The translations under genes were made by a program, and so were the position numbers. From contig JBGFSC010000051.1 in the NCBI GenBank assembly GCA_041694815.1, forward strand, positions 1 through 24,934: a DNA stretch of 24,934 nt, read 5' to 3'. This stretch comes from Elusimicrobiota bacterium. GTDB lineage: Bacteria > Elusimicrobiota > Elusimicrobia > UBA1565 > JACRDR01. This document shows positions 5,149 through 11,900 of the stretch, piece by piece. The notes beneath the pieces were generated by a model that saw only the letters and a list, made by a program, of their open reading frames with translations, was not told the DNA's origin and did no database searches. Position 1 is the stretch's first letter. Every line of letters starts with the position of its first letter.

Positions 5149-6252
5149 TTATTTATTAGGGGAGGCGGCGATCGGGCCCAAGCGCCGCGCGAGCGCGGCA
5201 AGGCCGGCGTCGACGTCCATCTGGGTGATGTATCCCATATGCGCGACGCGCACGATCTTCCCCTTGAGTTTTTCCTGGCCGTTAGCGATAGAGATGCGCT
5301 CTTCCTCCAGAAGGGCCTTGAGTAGGGCGTTGCCATCGATGCCGGAAGGCAGCCAGGCGGCCGTCAGGATGTCGGCGGGGTCGGAGGCGTAGAGGCGCAG
5401 GCCGATTTCCGAGAGCCGTTGGCGCGTGTGGGCGGCCAGCGTCGCCGTCCGCTTCCATACGTTCTCGATGCCCTCGGCGCGGATAAGGCGTAGGGCCTCC
5501 GCCTGGGCCACGACCAGGTTGACCGCCGGAGTGTAGGGGGTTTCCTTATTGGGGATGCTATCACGGATGATGCGCCAGTCGAAGTAAAAGCGGGGAAGTC
5601 GGGCCGATTCGACGGCCCGCCAGGCGCGCGGGGAAACGCTTGCGAAGGCCAGGCCCGGCCCATTCATGAGCCCCTTTTGGGAACCGGTGAGAACGACATC
5701 GAGCTCCCAGGCGTCCGTCTCGCATTCCTCGGCGGCCAGGCCGGAGACCGAATCGACGACGACAAGCGCGTCGGAATTCTCGTGAACGACGCGCGATAAG
5801 GACGCGAGATCGTTGACGATGCCGGTGGAAGTATCGGTGTGCTGCAGGAACACCGCCTTGACCGTGGGGTTTTTCTTTAAGGCCTCGCGGAGCCGGGCCC
5901 CATCGGCGGCGCGTCCCCACGGCTCCTCGACGACCGTGGGGGAGATGCCATAGGCGCGCAAGATCTTCACGAATCGGTCGCCGAAGGCCCCGGTGGTGTG
6001 CACCAGGGCAAGTTCGCCCGGAGACAGGAGATTGGCCACCGCCGACTCCATGGAGCCGGTGCCGGAGGCGGTCAGCATCAAGACCGTATTCTTGCTCCGG
6101 TAGACGTACTGCATGTCCGCGATCACCTGCTCGAAGCATTTGCCAAACTCCGCGGTGCGGTGGTGGAGGATGGGCTCGGCCAACTTCGCCGAAACGGAGG
6201 GCGGCAATGGCGTGGGGCCGGGAGTAAGCAGGATGGTGGGCCGCGGCTTCAT
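5149..6252 (-). CDS. Class V PLP-dependent aminotransferase (alanine-glyoxylate/serine-pyruvate family), probable phosphoserine aminotransferase by context
   Basis: [29 protein letters not shown] lysine in GSQKGL, TPYTP, RVAHMG; adjacent to serA. Confidence 0.92.
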
Positions 6253-8651
6253 GCGGCAGCGCCGGGACGCTGGAGCGGCTCGCTTCTATCGGTCAGCGGC
6301 GAGCCGAGGCCCGGCCAAGCGGAACCTCTCGCCTTGGCCATCTCGGGCAGCAGGGCCTTGGCGAACACATCAGAGATATGGCGGACCGGATGCATCTCGA
6401 GCTGGGCCAGGACATCCTTGGGGATGTCCTCGAGGTCCTTGGCGTTCGCGTACGGGAACAAGACGGTCTTGATCCCCTCGCGGTGGGCTGCCATCACCTT
6501 CTCCTTGAGGCCGCCGATGGGCAGCACGCGGCCGCGCAGGGTGATCTCGCCGGTCATCGCCACGTCCGGTCGAACGGGGCGCCCTGAGATCTGGCTGGCT
6601 AAGGCCGTCGCCAGCGTGATGCCGGCCGAGGGGCCGTCCTTGGGGATCGCCCCTTCCGGCACGTGTACGTGAAAATCCTGCCTGCGAAAAGTGGCCGGAG
6701 GCACTCCCAGCCACTTGGCGGCGGACTTGATGTAGGAAAGGGCGGCCTGGGCGGATTCCTGCATCACCGAGCCGAGCTTGCCGGTCAAGGTCAGGGCTCC
6801 CTTGCCAGGAGTGGCCACGACCTCGATGGCCAGGACCTCGCCTCCGTGCTCGGTCCAGGCCAGTCCGGTCGCCACGCCCACCTCGTTATGGGCGATGCGC
6901 TCCTGGTGGAACTTTGGGACGCCGAGGTACTTCGGGATGTCTCCGGCATCGATGACGAGCTTTTGGGGCTTCTCTTGGACTATCTTCTTGGCCGCTTTGC
7001 GGGCGAGGCTGCCCATCTCCCTCTCGAGGTTGCGCACGCCGGCCTCCCGGGTGTATTCGCGGATGGCGCGGTCGAGCGCGGCGTCGCGGATCTCGACCAA
7101 GGAGGGAGCCAGGCCGTGGTCCTTGAGTTGCTTGGGGATCAGGTAGCCGCGGGCGATCGATATCTTTTCCCGATGAGTGTATCCCGGAAAGCGCATAATC
7201 TCGAGCCGGTCTTGGAGGCTGACGGGTATCCCCTCGAGCGTATTCGCGGTGCAGATGAACATGACGTTGGAAAGGTCGAACTCGACGTCGAGGTAATGGT
7301 CGAGGAAGGTCGAATTCTGCTCCGGGTCGAGGACCTCGAGCAGGGCGGCCGCTGGATCGCCGCGCCAATCCATTCCCATCTTGTCGATCTCGTCGAGCAG
7401 GAAAACCGGATTGCGGCTCTGCGCCTTGCGCAGGGACTGAATGATTCGTCCAGGGAGAGATCCAATGTAGGTGCGCCGATGCCCGCGTATCTCCGCCTCG
7501 TCGCGGACTCCCCCGAGCGAAAGGCGGACGAACTTGCGGCCCACCGCGCGCGCGATGGAACGCCCGAGCGAGGTTTTGCCCACCCCGGGCGGGCCGACGA
7601 AGCAGAGGATGGGCCCCCGCAATCTTCTCGTCAATTGGCATACGGCGAGGTACTCCAGGATACGCTCCTTGGGCTTTTCGAGACCGTAGTGGTCCTCGTC
7701 GAGCACCTTGCCCGCCCGCGAGATATCCAGGTTGTCGCGGGTCTGCTTGGACCAGGGAAGCCCGATCATCCAATCCAGGTAGGTGCGGCAAACGGTCGAT
7801 TCCGGCGAGAAGGGCATCATCTTCTCGAGGCGGCTTAAATCCTTAAGGGCCGCCTCCTGAGCCGCTTTGGGCATCTTCGCCTGGGCTATCTTTTCGCGCA
7901 GTTCCTCGATTTCCTTGCCGAAATCGTCCTTCTGACGGAGCTCCTTTTGTATGGCCTTCATCTGTTCCGTCAGGTAGTACTCCTTCTGCGTCTTTTCGAT
8001 CTGCGTGCGCACCTGCGAGTGGATCTTCTTGTCGAGGTTGAGGATGTCGATCTCGGCGTTGATGAGGGTGATGAGCTTCTTGGCGCGCGCCTTGGGGTCG
8101 AAACTCTCGAGCAGGGCCTGGCGCTCGGCGATCTTGACGATCGCGCTGGCGGCGATCGTGTCCGTCAGGCGGCCGAGTTCGTCGATTTGGGCGAGGGGGG
8201 CCAGGGCCTCTACGGCCACGCGGCGGCTGAGCTTGACGTAGCGTTCAAAGACCTCGATGGAATGGCGCATGAGGGCGGCGGCCTCGGGGCCGGAGCGCAC
8301 AGGCTCCTCGATGTGCTCCAAGCCGCTTTCCCAATAGCCCTTGCCCGAGAACTGCGGGGAGGCGGCCCGCGCGCGGCTGAGCCCCTGCAGGAACACCTTC
8401 AGCGTGCCGTCGGGCATCTTGAGCGACTGGATGATCTCCGCGAGCACGCCGACCTCGTAGAGGTCCTTGGTCTGGGGGTCCTCGATCGACGCCTGGCGCT
8501 GCGCGACGACCAGGATGAGCTTGGCCGGCTCCGCCGCGGCGGCCTCCAGGGCGCGGATGGATTTCTCGCGGCCGACCGACAAGGGCAGGGCCATATGCGG
8601 GAATAGCACCACGTCCCGGACGGCTAGGAGCGGAAGATGGGAGGGTTTCAT
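6249..8651 (-). CDS. lon: ATP-dependent Lon protease (endopeptidase La)
   Basis: N-domain [29 protein letters not shown], Walker [18 protein letters not shown], catalytic PKDGPSAG (Ser) and GGLKEK (Lys). Confidence 0.98.
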
Positions 8652-9250
8652 TTCTTCTTGAAGGTCATGACCTCGTCGATGATCCCGTAGGACTTGGCCT
8701 CGGCTGCGGACATGTAGTAATTGCGTTCCATGTCCTCGCGTAGCTTGTCCGCCTTCTGGCCCGTGTGCTTGGAGAGGATGCCGATGAGCTTTTCCTTCGT
8801 GAGGTTCATCTCCTTGGCCTCGATCTCGATGTCCGTGGCCTGCCCGCCGAGGCCGCCGTAGATGAGCGGTTGGTGGATCATGACTCGGGCATACGGGAGG
8901 GCGTAGCGGCGCCCCTTGGTTCCCGCCGCCAGGAGCACGGCGCCGAAGGACATGGCCATGCCGATGCAGATTGTGGTGATTGGCGACTTGACATACTGCA
9001 TGGTGTCGTAGACCGCCAGCCCGGCCGAGACCATCCCGCCGGGGGAATTGATGTAGAGGTTGATGTCGCGGTCATTGTCCTCCGCGTCTAAGTAGAGCAG
9101 TTGGGCGATAATGAGATTGGCGGAGTCAGTGGTCACGGCGCCGTCTTGGCCGCCGACGAAGATGATGCGGTCCTTGAGCAGCCGCGAATAGATGTCGTAG
9201 CCGATGGCCGCGCCCTGGTTCCAGCGTTCGAGTATCGTAGGGATAATCAT
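8648..9250 (-). CDS. clpP: ATP-dependent Clp protease proteolytic subunit (variant triad Ser-His-Asn)
   Basis: [41 protein letters not shown] (Ser), MIHQP (His), ERNYYMS. Confidence 0.97.
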
Positions 9251-9274: not shown

Positions 9275-10552
9275 TCACTGCTTGGCGACGGCGGCGTTTG
9301 CCTTGACTAAGGCCATTACCTTGCGCTCGCGCAGTAGGCCGCGAATCTCCTCCTTGCGTTCCTCGAATATCCGGCGCAGGCCCTTGCGCTGCTCCTCCGA
9401 GGCCCCTTCCGGTAGGCTTTTCTGGAGCTCCGCCTCAACGTCGGAGTCCGCGACCTCGATCTTTTCGGCCGTAGCGATCGCCTCTAGCAGGAAGGAGAGC
9501 CGGACCTCCGCCTCGGCGCGGGGGGCCAGTTTTTCCTCGAGCTTTTTACGCTCGGCTTCGGGCAGCTCCGCCTTGGGGCCGATCCATTGCTCCTGTACCC
9601 GCTGCGCGAGGCGCTGGAGTTGGTGCTCCACCAGGGACGGGGGCACGGGGAAGGGATTGGCCTTGAGCAGCGCCTCCTCCAGTTGCAGGGCGAGATCTCG
9701 CTCCGCCTTTTGCCGTCCCTCGCGCTCAATAAGTTCCCGGAGATTCTTCTTGAGTTCCTCGAGGGTCTCGAAGCCCAGGTCTTTCGCGAAGGCGTCGTCG
9801 AGCGGAGGCAGCGCCTTCGACTTGATCTCCTTGACCGTGACGCGGAGACTCATGTCCCGCTGGCCCGCCTTCACCGCGACGTCGCGGGTCTCGCCGCGCT
9901 TGGCCCCGAGCAGCCCCTCCACGAGGCCTTCGAGCGTTTGGGGAGAGGATAGGTCGATAAGTTCATCGGAGCCTCGGCTCTCCTTGAGCGCCTTGCCGCC
10001 AGCGAAACCCTGGTAATCGACGACGAGATAATGCTCCTTTTGGGCGGCCTCCCCCGAAAAGGACTCCAGCCGGGCGTTGCCTTCCCGTAACTCCGCCAAG
10101 CGCTTGGAGAGCTCCTCATCGGTGGCCGGGTAGGACTTCTCGACGACGGGCAGCTTCTTGTAATTCTTGAGCTCGAACTTGGGGGCGCACTCAACATCGA
10201 CCTGGAAGACCAGGGGCTGGTCGTCCTCCATGCGCACCGCGTGCACGGCCGGTGAGACCACCGGCTTAAGCTTGGCTTCCTGCACCGCTTCGGGAACCGA
10301 CTTCTGTATCAGTTGGTGCAGGACGCGTTCCTTGGCCTCCTGCGCGAACTGTTTTTGGATCAGGGGCAAGGGGGCCTTGCCAGCGCGGAATCCTGGGAGG
10401 CGGGCCTGCGTCTGGATCTGCAGCCATACGTTATGAGTCGTCTCTTGGACTCGGGAGGTGGGGACTTGAACCTCCAGGGTGCTGAGGCAGCCCTCCTCCT
10501 TGAGCTTCTTGACCTTCAGTTTGTCCTTATTGGAAAGTATTCCTGCGAACAT
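9275..10552 (-). CDS. tig: Trigger factor
   Basis: Ribosome-binding signature LPGFRAGKAP, FKBP-like middle region, LP.LDDAFAK; position between tRNA-Leu and clpP; SD GAGG upstream. Confidence 0.95.
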   Translation of the reverse strand: MFAGILSNKDKLKVKKLKEEGCLSTLEVQVPTSRVQETTHNVWLQIQTQARLPGFRAGKAPLPLIQKQFAQEAKERVLHQLIQKSVPEAVQEAKLKPVVSPAVHAVRMEDDQPLVFQVDVECAPKFELKNYKKLPVVEKSYPATDEELSKRLAELREGNARLESFSGEAAQKEHYLVVDYQGFAGGKALKESRGSDELIDLSSPQTLEGLVEGLLGAKRGETRDVAVKAGQRDMSLRVTVKEIKSKALPPLDDAFAKDLGFETLEELKKNLRELIEREGRQKAERDLALQLEEALLKANPFPVPPSLVEHQLQRLAQRVQEQWIGPKAELPEAERKKLEEKLAPRAEAEVRLSFLLEAIATAEKIEVADSDVEAELQKSLPEGASEEQRKGLRRIFEERKEEIRGLLRERKVMALVKANAAVAKQ

Positions 10553-10574
10553 GGCGTCCTCTCGAGTTAAGATT

Positions 10575-10657
10575 TGGACGGGGAGGGATTTGAACCCTCA
10601 CACCCTCGCGGGTACAAGGTCCTAAGCCTTGCGCGTCTGCCGTTCCGCCACCCGTCC
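10575..10657 (-). tRNA. tRNA-Leu (anticodon TAG), CCA not encoded
   Basis: GGACGGG/CCCGTCC acceptor stem plus discriminator A, D-arm TGGCGGAACGGCAGACGC, CAAGG-CTTAGGA-CCTTG anticodon arm, long variable arm, GAGGG-TTCAAAT-CCCTC T-arm. Confidence 0.97.
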
Positions 10658-10672
10658 CCCTTTGGCTCCCGC

Positions 10673-11320
10673 TCAGCTCGAGGGTTTGACCGGCGGGGCG
10701 TCGGCCGGTTTCGCCGCGGGCTTCTCGTCCTTGGCAGGTGCCTTTTCGACGCGCGCGTCGGCCGGCAGCTCCGGGACCGAGAAGGATTCGAGCGTCTCGA
10801 ACATCAGCTTGGCCCCTTGCGCGAATTCGACATTGAGCTTGCCTCCCAAAATGGAGGCCGCCGTGCTCGCCGCCGCGCCGGCGCCGGCCCCGATAACCGC
10901 TCCCTCCTTGCCTCCGAAGAGCACCCCGTAAAGCGCTCCCTGCATCGCCCCCAAAAAGGAGGACCCCCAATGCTTGCCGCCGTGCCCCTCGCCGCTGTAG
11001 GAGAGGGTATCCGTCTTGATCTCGTAGGAACGGCCGTCAAGCTCAACGGTTTGCAGCACCAAGGTTAGCTTGGCCTTCCCCTTGATCCTGCCGGAGGGCA
11101 CCACCTCGGGCAGGACCCCGCGCACGGTGGTCCCGGGAGGGACGACTACCTGGCCGCGCAGCCAAACCCCCTCCTCGATCTTCGCCCGGAAAACATCTCC
11201 AGGCTTGTTCTTGCCCGAGCTGAGCGGGTCGACCAACTCGACGGTTAGGACCGTCCCCCGTGGCACTTCCACCAGGGTTTCCTTGGTCGGCTTGGCTCCC
11301 AGCAGGCAAAGCGAGATCAA
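10673..11320 (-). CDS. VirB10/TrbI-like beta-domain protein with glycine zipper; start uncertain (ATG 11410, TTG 11320 or GTG 11272)
   Basis: VPRGT.L.V.L...LSS.....GD.F.A, VVVP.GT.V.G, GRIKGKA.L.L, a GAVIGAGAGAA glycine zipper, and a Pro/Ala/Lys-rich tail. Confidence 0.8.
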   Translation of the reverse strand: MISLCLLGAKPTKETLVEVPRGTVLTVELVDPLSSGKNKPGDVFRAKIEEGVWLRGQVVVPPGTTVRGVLPEVVPSGRIKGKAKLTLVLQTVELDGRSYEIKTDTLSYSGEGHGGKHWGSSFLGAMQGALYGVLFGGKEGAVIGAGAGAAASTAASILGGKLNVEFAQGAKLMFETLESFSVPELPADARVEKAPAKDEKPAAKPADAPPVKPSS

Positions 11321-11322
11321 TA

Positions 11323-11394
11323 TGGGCCATACAGGATTCGAACCTGTAACCTTGCGCTTAAGAGGCGCCTGCTCTACCGTTGAGCTAATGGCCC
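11323..11394 (-). tRNA. tRNA-Lys (anticodon CTT), CCA not encoded
   Basis: GGGCCAT/ATGGCCC acceptor stem plus discriminator A, TAGCTCAACGGTAGAGC D-arm, anticodon loop CTCTTAA, ACAGG-TTCGAAT-CCTGT T-arm. Confidence 0.96.
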
Positions 11395-11408
11395 GGCGAT
11401 GGTCGCGC

Positions 11409-11437
11409 ATCCTTAGTAAGACCCTTCATGATATCAA
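11409..11437 (-). promoter_or_regulatory. Candidate promoter for the tRNA-Lys operon
   Basis: TTGATA (11437-11432), N17, AAGGAT (11414-11409), followed by a GC-rich discriminator-like GCGCGAC. The -10 match is weak. Confidence 0.35.
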
Positions 11438-11451
11438 ATAACGAAATACAA

Positions 11452-11480
11452 TTGACAGTTTCGGCGTCGGGGGGTATACT
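11452..11480 (+). promoter_or_regulatory. Near-consensus sigma70 promoter for the CBS gene (leaderless)
   Basis: TTGACA (11452-11457), 17 nt, TATACT (11475-11480), 6 nt, ATG (11487). Confidence 0.85.
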
Positions 11481-11486
11481 CAGGCC

Positions 11487-11900
11487 ATGAAATCCCAGGC
11501 GGCCGGGCTCATGAAAACGCCTGTCGCGGTGCCTCCCGAGACCTTGGTGACCGAGGTCGCGCGGCTCATGAAGAAGTCCAATATCGGCTCGGTGCTGGTG
11601 GGCGACCCCAAGCGGCCGGCGGGCATCTTCACGGAGCGTGATGTGTGCCGCCGCGTCATCGCGGAGGGATTGGACCCCGCCAAGACGCCCGTCGGCGAGG
11701 TCATGAGTAAGAAACTCGTCACCGTTGACGCCTCGGAGCCGTTGGATAAGATATTCGATTGCCTCGCCAAGGGGCAATTCCGACACGTGCCGATTACCGA
11801 GGGCAAGGAGGTGGTGGGCATCGTATCCCTTACGGACCTCGCCTACGTGTTCCGGGAGATGTACAAGGACGAGAAGTTCCTCGAGAACTTCACCGATTAG
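11487..11900 (+). CDS. CBS domain pair protein
   Basis: LM...V.V.P...V.EVA.LM....IGSVLV, GIFTERD, V.EVMS..LVTV, FRHVPI......VGIVSL.DL. Confidence 0.93.
   Translation: MKSQAAGLMKTPVAVPPETLVTEVARLMKKSNIGSVLVGDPKRPAGIFTERDVCRRVIAEGLDPAKTPVGEVMSKKLVTVDASEPLDKIFDCLAKGQFRHVPITEGKEVVGIVSLTDLAYVFREMYKDEKFLENFTD

Follow-up and report, generated by a model that had tools for sequence, protein, structure and literature searches.

In animal mitochondria, protein genes are flanked by transfer RNA (tRNA) genes with minimal spacers, lack Shine-Dalgarno (SD) sequences, and start at or next to the end of a tRNA that does not encode its CCA. Where tRNA genes of animal mitochondria or reduced endosymbionts overlap other genes, bases are shared and two products compete for one transcript. 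Bacterial tRNA-mRNA co-transcripts of the Escherichia coli tufB operon type place a tRNA and a protein gene behind a shared promoter on a shared transcript, and transfer-messenger RNA (tmRNA) combines a tRNA part and a coding part in one RNA. When a bacterial tRNA gene and a coding sequence overlap on the same strand, the overlap is usually put down to faulty annotation. SD-independent initiation at or near an RNA 5' end is a property of leaderless and short-leader mRNAs, as described in Actinobacteria and Deinococcus (PMC4633059, PMC4007540, PMC3848588). Likenesses to each of these systems are seen or proposed at one locus of an Elusimicrobiota bacterium (GenBank assembly GCA_041694815.1, contig JBGFSC010000051.1, positions 1 to 24,934; this whole stretch of 24,934 nucleotides (nt) is referred to as the window). 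At this locus, a gene for a predicted exported protein directly follows the only tRNA-Lys(CTT) gene of the genome and appears to have no translation initiation region of its own.

The gene order, entirely on the minus strand, is tRNA-Lys(CTT), a 245-codon open frame, tRNA-Leu(TAG), tig, clpP and lon, and the spacers around the gene are 0–2 nt to tRNA-Lys and 15 nt to tRNA-Leu (Table 1). Both tRNAs exceed the Rfam RF00005 gathering score of 29 and have standard anticodons, and neither anticodon occurs a second time in the genome's set of 48 tRNA genes. The gene frame is open across the entire tRNA-Lys, where it reads AISSTVEQAPLKRKVTGSNPVWP. The first in-frame canonical start past the tRNA, TTG 11320, lies 2 nt beyond the discriminator base, and the hydrophobic core of the putative signal peptide has a best 8-residue Kyte-Doolittle mean of 3.2 in the gene frame, versus 1.3 and -0.5 in the other frames. 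Cleavage likely occurs after LLGA, a site judged by eye against the customary -3/-1 rule. The hydrophobic core starts at the last base of the tRNA, which indicates that the gene lacks a translation start region of its own. The layout given in an earlier note on this DNA, with TTG 2 nt past the discriminator, AAGGA ahead of GTG 11272 and the stop codon 15 nt before tRNA-Leu, is accurate in all respects. The same note had remarked that neither flanking tRNA encodes CCA; the sequence bears this out, and CCA is encoded by 0 of 48 tRNA genes genome-wide.

The junction was compared in 14 loci with available DNA, the window included; the tRNA adjoins the gene in 13 of them, and another gene intervenes in the fourteenth. 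Reading frames are named by the number of tRNA bases in the codon at the boundary. Frame A (one tRNA base; 7 loci) contains no stop in the tRNA and offers an ATG in the D-loop if position 16 is T. Frame B (two tRNA bases; 5 loci) encounters TAA in the anticodon loop and then an ATG in the acceptor stem, and frame C (no tRNA base; 1 locus, which has its own ATG) encounters TAG in the D-arm and has no start in the tRNA. Because the openness of frame A is fixed by the tRNA sequence itself, openness alone is no evidence of translation. The signal that rises above chance is the hydrophobic segment, conserved flush with the tRNA in relatives. An own start 11–16 nt past the tRNA is present in 5 of the 13 adjacent loci (ATG in L071, L075, L083 and L084; TTG in L074), none of them with an SD sequence. 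In the remaining 8, including the window, the putative signal-peptide core starts at the last base of the tRNA and no canonical start lies between tRNA and core, the window being counted here despite its TTG at +3. The first 16 codons past the tRNA are hydrophobic in the gene frame only in all eight of these startless loci (best 8-residue mean 2.2–3.5, versus at most 1.6 in other frames); conservation of the segment in relatives was a check set by the earlier note. Within the tRNA or upstream of it, all eight also have an in-frame ATG, located at -58 in five loci, at -8 in two, and at -88 in the window.

The startless loci differ in where that ATG lies. In five frame-A loci (L073, L077, L078, L080 and L085), the only candidates are the D-loop ATG at -58, an overlap of 58 nt, or starts further upstream, and the first later starts, where present, fall within the hydrophobic core. 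In two frame-B loci (L070 and L088), the acceptor-stem ATG at -8 is the sole start and overlaps the tRNA by 8 nt. The L070 junction reads MAQRSRLKGILVALALAAPAWSA, with a charged RSRLK directly past the tRNA and no other start upstream of it; on this reading, RSRLK is translatable from the acceptor-stem ATG only. The window has ATG 11410 at -88 together with the TTG at +3, its D-loop is CAACGG (ACG) and so provides no frame-A ATG, and its acceptor-stem ATG (11330–11328) is out of the gene frame. The dual-coding tRNA suggested in the earlier note thus fits the relatives better than the window, whose tRNA has no D-loop ATG. Two further observations concern small reading frames at this junction. 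An open reading frame (ORF) of 95 codons (11043–11330, minus strand) runs from the acceptor-stem ATG of the window in frame B and overlaps the gene in a different frame; its product would not be hydrophobic, and GC-rich DNA has probably produced this ORF by chance. In one genus, represented by three species (L077, L078 and L080), the last two leader bases are AT, and together with the first bases of the tRNA they form a mini-ORF, ATG-GGC-CAT-TAG, that ends 4 nt ahead of the D-loop ATG; this spacing is typical of termination-reinitiation and occurs in that genus only.

Database gene calls for 30 close orthologs begin inside or upstream of the tRNA in 15 cases. Five of these calls run through the tRNA in frame A (…MVEQAPLKRKVT.SS.VWP, then the hydrophobic core), and ten begin with MAH or MAQ, corresponding to ATG-GCC-CA of the tRNA 3' end. 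The tRNA origin of these ten starts is deduced from the five frame-B loci read as DNA, the MAH and MAQ orthologs themselves being known as proteins alone. The other calls comprise 11 with other starts, 3 that are truncated and 1 that is partial.

Ratios of nonsynonymous to synonymous substitution (dN/dS) among the eight startless loci range from 0.15 to 0.54 in 26 of 28 pairs, the other 2 pairs being saturated. Within a single genus, three species that are in frame A and have no start of their own give dN/dS of 0.15–0.29 at dS of 0.7–1.1. These values indicate that genes without a start of their own are still under purifying selection. In a neighbor-joining tree with 100 bootstraps, the frame-A genus clade (support 85) is sister to an MAH clade within a node of support 100, and the window groups with an MAH clade (support 67). 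The placement of the frame-A and MAH clades implies that the junction frame changed more than once.

The psd gene served as a control, being located behind tRNA-Leu(TAA) in 25 of 30 loci of relatives, across all three families of the order. All 25 adjacent psd loci have their own canonical start 7–183 nt past the tRNA, versus 5 of 13 loci for the present gene (6 of 13 counting the window TTG; Fisher p = 3e-5, a value overstated by kinship). Genes behind tRNAs thus do not generally lack a start; the lack is a peculiarity of this gene. Separately, several of the psd spacers (loci L140–L169) contain a TATGAT-type -10 near the start codon.

The product of the gene was characterized from its sequence and from a structure model. 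A Pfam scan of the window protein (E ≤ 0.1) returns Gly-zipper_YMGG (PF13441) only, at 18 bits against a cut-off of 28.9, and no match to the VirB10/TrbI profile PF03743; PF13441 has a precomputed match in 11 of 29 other close orthologs. The AlphaFold2 model of the mature part (199 residues), built on an alignment of 11 orthologs, has a pLDDT of 72.5, and 89 of its 199 residues score 90 or more; the barrel is modeled with confidence, unlike residues 97–143. The top 10 Foldseek matches are all VirB10-type C-terminal domains (TrwE, CagY and Xanthomonas VirB10 among them; probability 1.0, TM 0.42–0.44, E 1e-4 to 1e-3), and ComB10 ranks 13th. As modeled, the fold is a VirB10-C-terminal-domain-like beta-barrel with a putative glycine-zipper insert, and in the mature protein the start of the barrel is followed by this insert and a Pro/Ala/Lys-rich tail. 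The label VirB10-like, used in the earlier note, is thus apt for the fold and does not extend to family membership, since Pfam TrbI is not matched and no type IV secretion-system genes occur among the neighbors of the gene. Orthologs with an own start open with classic signal peptides, such as MKSLLILLLAAAPAAAEP and MRHAVLAVCLLSVAAGA, which indicates that the protein family is exported. Sec signal peptides have a charged n-region, a hydrophobic core of about 7–15 residues, and small residues at -3 and -1. In the window, a charged region is present only if the tRNA (as KRK) or the leader is translated.

Anatomy, conservation, purifying selection and the contrast with psd are the observed ground on which a transcript, a start codon and a competition between processing and translation can be proposed. 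The gene is most likely transcribed from the tRNA-Lys promoter, for which an extended -10 is predicted; its motif, TTTGnTAnnAT, recurs 14–60 nt upstream of tRNA-Lys in loci of relatives. The predicted transcript start lies near 11421, downstream of an in-frame TGA (11427–11425) and about 11 nt ahead of ATG 11410, which makes this ATG the first AUG of the predicted transcript. Some orthologs keep an ATG 11–16 nt past the tRNA, and several lineages have lost it. Under the proposed mechanism, lineages without it would take their start inside the tRNA gene, either in the acceptor stem or in the D-loop, and the equivalent start of the window would be ATG 11410 in the leader, with translation covering the tRNA in full (72 nt). 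The charged KRK and the first part of the hydrophobic core (VWPILISLCLLGA) would then come from the tRNA, and the product would carry a 40-residue signal peptide, MRDHRRAISSTVEQAPLKRKVTGSNPVWPILISLCLLGA, cut after LLGA and followed by KP. Each transcript would be either matured to tRNA-Lys or translated, never both. Translation that begins at ATG 11410 and runs through tRNA-Lys is given a probability approaching, and not quite attaining, one half. The wider proposal is that a single-copy functional tRNA-Lys doubles as coding sequence in this clade, with a start at an acceptor-stem or D-loop ATG, a frame-A anticodon arm that encodes KRK, transcripts that each serve as tRNA or mRNA, and a mitochondria-like layout without SD sequences or RNase Z; it is offered tentatively, as an idea with a somewhat greater chance of failing than of standing.

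Several points weigh against this reading. Among sequencing runs screened for positions 10500–11500, no RNA run was listed as containing this DNA, and two DNA runs contained 5% of the sampled words. The frames at the 13 adjacent junctions vary (7 A, 5 B, 1 C), so that read-through of the whole tRNA, whose conservation the earlier note had proposed to check, is not conserved. The window is the one frame-A locus without a D-loop ATG, and it has the TTG at +3. The link between frame A and the D-loop ATG is weak (5 of 6 versus 5 of 13, one-sided p = 0.09, in related loci), and an in-frame leader ATG occurs only in the window, L073 and P0002; by rough estimate, about 10% of leaders could have one by chance. 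The promoter is supported by a motif match alone, and the deep nodes of the tree are poorly supported, which leaves the number of independent start-codon losses uncertain. A folded tRNA should hide a D-loop AUG, and an acceptor-stem AUG even more, and tRNA processing is fast. Comparison of the minimum-energy fold with an enforced cloverleaf, over the tRNA and 75 nt, revealed no alternative fold that opens the tRNA; the energy gap between the two is -3.1 to +2.7 kcal/mol in 19 loci and follows no class pattern. Taken across the family, the evidence is strongest for the 8-nt acceptor-stem overlap and weaker for reading of the whole tRNA.

Other mechanisms were considered and rejected. A promoter inside the tRNA that would give a leaderless AUG at -8 was dismissed by eye, the T-loop hexamer being without the key second-position A. 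A +1 frameshift from the acceptor-stem ATG into frame A was also discarded, as the recurrent TTCCTCC represents plain Phe-Leu-Leu codons in the gene frame. Use of the tRNA in the manner of tmRNA or of an internal ribosome entry site was rejected on geometry and on the blocked 3' end.

Genes that start close behind tRNAs are common in this genome. An ATG-led ORF of at least 80 codons begins within 10 nt past the tRNA at 9 of 48 tRNA genes, versus 4.9% of random positions (p = 4e-4), and within 25 nt at 14 of 48, versus 10.3% (p = 2e-4). These ORFs are mostly without an SD sequence; examples are those behind the tRNA genes at C40:14861-14952, C23:39627-39698, C14:68318-68400, C24:56867-56938 and C52:20129-20202. 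Pfam identifies 8 of 12 tested tRNA-abutting ORFs as real genes, namely ThrS, PSD, a response regulator, PCD, a TPR protein, GlmU, a GAF-domain kinase and a solute-binding protein. Of 1299 first ATGs, 385 (30%) have an SD-like 4-mer ahead of them, versus 1743 of 8131 internal ATGs (21%); for the class Elusimicrobia, a published tabulation puts the share of SD genes at 46% (PMC10783764). The genome-wide excess of ATGs near tRNA ends indicates that an SD-less start just behind a tRNA is normal here. The statement in the earlier note that there is no room for an SD sequence consequently loses weight, in a genome that uses SD sequences little. Its idea of mitochondria-like punctuation gains support from the same SD-less ATGs. 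RNase Z, which that note had named as the cutting enzyme, was not found in the genome (97.8% complete): the best match reaches 57.8 bits against a cut-off of 292.95, and the best matches to the profile are proteins clearly of other identity. CCA has to be added to every tRNA of this genome; RNase P RNA is present (175.9 bits), as are two nucleotidyltransferase genes of the CCA-adding type.

Additional arrangements of this kind were observed at other tRNAs and beside the gene itself. The last base of tRNA-Arg(CCG) (C12:58453-58524) is the A of the ATG of a lipoprotein-like ORF (C12:58524-59066; MESLPTLLALLILFSGC), an overlap of 1 nt; this ORF has no ortholog in 40 relatives and no Pfam match. 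In family f3 (L115, L116, L124, L128 and L129), a small gene beginning MLIKLRVHP starts about 5–13 nt past tRNA-Pro(TGG), and in the genome of the window (G000) and in G001 a solute-binding-protein gene takes this position instead, at +10 and +12. A near-consensus promoter (TTGACA, 17 nt, TATACT; 11452–11489, plus strand) precedes the divergent CBS-domain gene; because the -10 ends 6 nt before ATG 11487, the mRNA of this gene is probably leaderless.

This background bears directly on an explanation in which the tRNA is cut at or near its 3' end and TTG 11320 is used on a near-leaderless mRNA with a leader of 0–2 nt, the tRNA serving as punctuation only. Both the genome-wide excess of SD-less ATGs near tRNA 3' ends (9 and 14 of 48) and the own ATGs of orthologs 11–16 nt past the tRNA, likewise without SD sequences, are in its favor, as are the leaderless appearance of the CBS-domain gene and a window trailer that is A/U-rich like the other trailers of the genome. 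However, the resulting signal peptide, MISLCLLGA, would have 9 residues and no charged stretch, which is judged too short by customary rules. The TTG at +3, whose conservation the earlier note had proposed to check, is moreover unique to the window, and L073, L077, L078, L080 and L085 have no start before the core, so that the family would be left unexplained. RNase Z was not found, and UUG is rare among leaderless starts, accounting for 3% in one actinobacterium (PMC3848588). Initiation at TTG 11320 is considered unlikely on this evidence, though it retains appreciable weight.

A start at GTG 11272 would make the protein an ordinary cytoplasmic one and leave the hydrophobic stretch untranslated. 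Although AAGGA with its 7-nt spacer forms the only good SD-start pair in the region, neither the start nor AAGGA is conserved; orthologs have GTG, ATG or no start at this place, within a variable linker. The pattern that the earlier note had named as fatal to its idea, with orthologs starting at this position and no conserved hydrophobic segment, is accordingly not the one seen in relatives. All 8 startless loci retain a hydrophobic stretch in the gene frame, members of the fold family reside in the periplasm or outer membrane, and a protein begun at the GTG has no signal peptide, whereas orthologs with an own start carry one. The low use of SD sequences in the genome also argues against this start, which is regarded as very improbable. 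It is also conceivable that the startless lineages use a non-canonical codon beside the tRNA (ATA, ATC, ATT or CTG), or that the gene is untranslated in them. Such codons do occur near the junction in some loci, but L078, L080 and L085, read by eye, contain none ahead of the core, and purifying selection and intact frames speak against gene decay; this combination of possibilities appears improbable.

Close orthologs are present in 15 of 101 genomes of the order, the window's own included, and are distributed unevenly among its families (4 of 5 in f1, 10 of 17 in f3 and 0 of 78 in f2). In an even sample of the phylum, 10 of 401 genomes contain an ortholog, two of them distant. Two families of a single Elusimicrobiota order share the tRNA-adjacent arrangement as a conserved feature; among 14 loci of relatives, tRNA-Lys adjoins the gene in 12 and tRNA-Leu is next after it in 10. 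Where the gene was not found, the gap from tRNA-Lys(CTT) to tRNA-Leu(TAG) is 9–82 nt in seven f2 loci and 57–417 nt in five f3 loci, and 2 of these five f3 gaps keep remnants of the 5' end of the gene. In L079 (G013), the remnant between the two tRNAs is a 46-codon ORF that keeps MAH and the signal peptide (MAHSFSIQTVPVVLSLLLSSAAYA...), and in L069 (G033) the 57-nt spacer keeps only ATGAGACTC.... These remnants indicate that the gene was lost by deletion in some lineages. Since genomes without the gene keep tRNA-Lys followed by tRNA-Leu, the gene sits within an older tRNA-Lys/tRNA-Leu/tig unit. Among the matches listed in wider contig searches, most are distant homologs at about 30% identity, and none of 15 distant homologs checked in other phyla or families has tRNA-Lys beside the gene; one has tRNA-Pro about 800 nt downstream. 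Neighbors of the gene in the window are the divergent, upstream CBS-domain gene, an HD-domain gene, tig, clpP, lon, an aminotransferase gene and serA.

Table 1. Features of the tRNA-Lys/tRNA-Leu locus in the window.
Feature	Position	Strand	Basis or remark
Predicted extended -10 (TGATATCAT)	11428-11436	-	Motif match; tRNA-Lys transcription unit
ATG in pre-tRNA leader	11408-11410	-	13 nt 5' of tRNA-Lys (5' end 11394); in gene frame
tRNA-Lys(CTT)	11323-11394	-	ARAGORN and Rfam tRNA, 71.2 bits
Protein gene, longest open frame	10673-11410	-	245 aa from ATG 11410; stop 10675-10673
Putative signal-peptide hydrophobic core ILISLCLLGA	11294-11323	-	First codon opens with the tRNA discriminator base
TTG, first in-frame canonical start past tRNA-Lys (+3)	11318-11320	-	Without SD
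AAGGA and GTG 11272	11270-11284	-	AAGGA 11284-11280, 7-nt gap; ordinary alternative start
Predicted mature protein	10673-11269	-	VirB10-C-terminal-domain-like beta-barrel (modeled) from conserved E[VI]PxGT motif
tRNA-Leu(TAG)	10575-10657	-	ARAGORN and Rfam tRNA, 57.8 bits; 15 nt past stop codon
tig (trigger factor)	9275-10552	-	ATG 10552, 22 nt past tRNA-Leu, behind GAGAGGA
clpP	8648-9250	-	Next after tig
lon	6249-8651	-	Next after clpP

The locus presents a family-wide case, under selection, in which an essential tRNA gene, or the DNA upstream of it, must apparently supply the start codon of a secreted protein. If the proposed mechanism is correct, a tRNA sequence would be shown to be translated, and a trade-off between tRNA and protein from one transcript would be built into the locus. 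The genome would then be a bacterial one that places genes against tRNAs much as mitochondria do, without RNase Z, and gene finders should handle tRNA-abutting ORFs differently. A literature search, conducted mainly at the level of titles and abstracts, found no bacterial coding start inside a tRNA gene.

Comparison with the systems described at the outset reveals a distinct combination of properties. Unlike mitochondrial punctuation, the arrangement occurs in a free-living bacterium (genome about 2.8 Mb) in which RNase Z was not found, and many orthologs have no start past the tRNA, so that clean excision would leave a startless mRNA. In tufB-type operons, the protein gene has its own spacer, SD sequence and start, and there is no overlap. 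Promoter-proximal ATGs exist in this genome as in those with leaderless mRNAs; however, the 5' end of leaderless mRNAs in Actinobacteria and Deinococcus comes from transcription initiation rather than from tRNA processing, and these mRNAs open with an AUG or GUG at the 5' terminus. The tRNA-like part of tmRNA is formed from both RNA ends and is aminoacylated, whereas here the tRNA 3' end is blocked by the mRNA. The protein shares with the VirB10/TrbI C-terminal domain a beta-barrel fold and an insert at the position of the VirB10 antenna, but its insert is a putative glycine zipper, and both the Pfam TrbI match and nearby secretion genes are lacking. Overlaps in organelles and endosymbionts go with extreme reduction, whereas the genomes here measure 1.8–5 Mb and the overlap is confined to a single gene family (0 of 25 psd loci show it). 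The case thus differs from mitochondrial punctuation, from the overlaps of reduced genomes, from tRNA-mRNA operons and from leaderless mRNAs, while sharing features with each.

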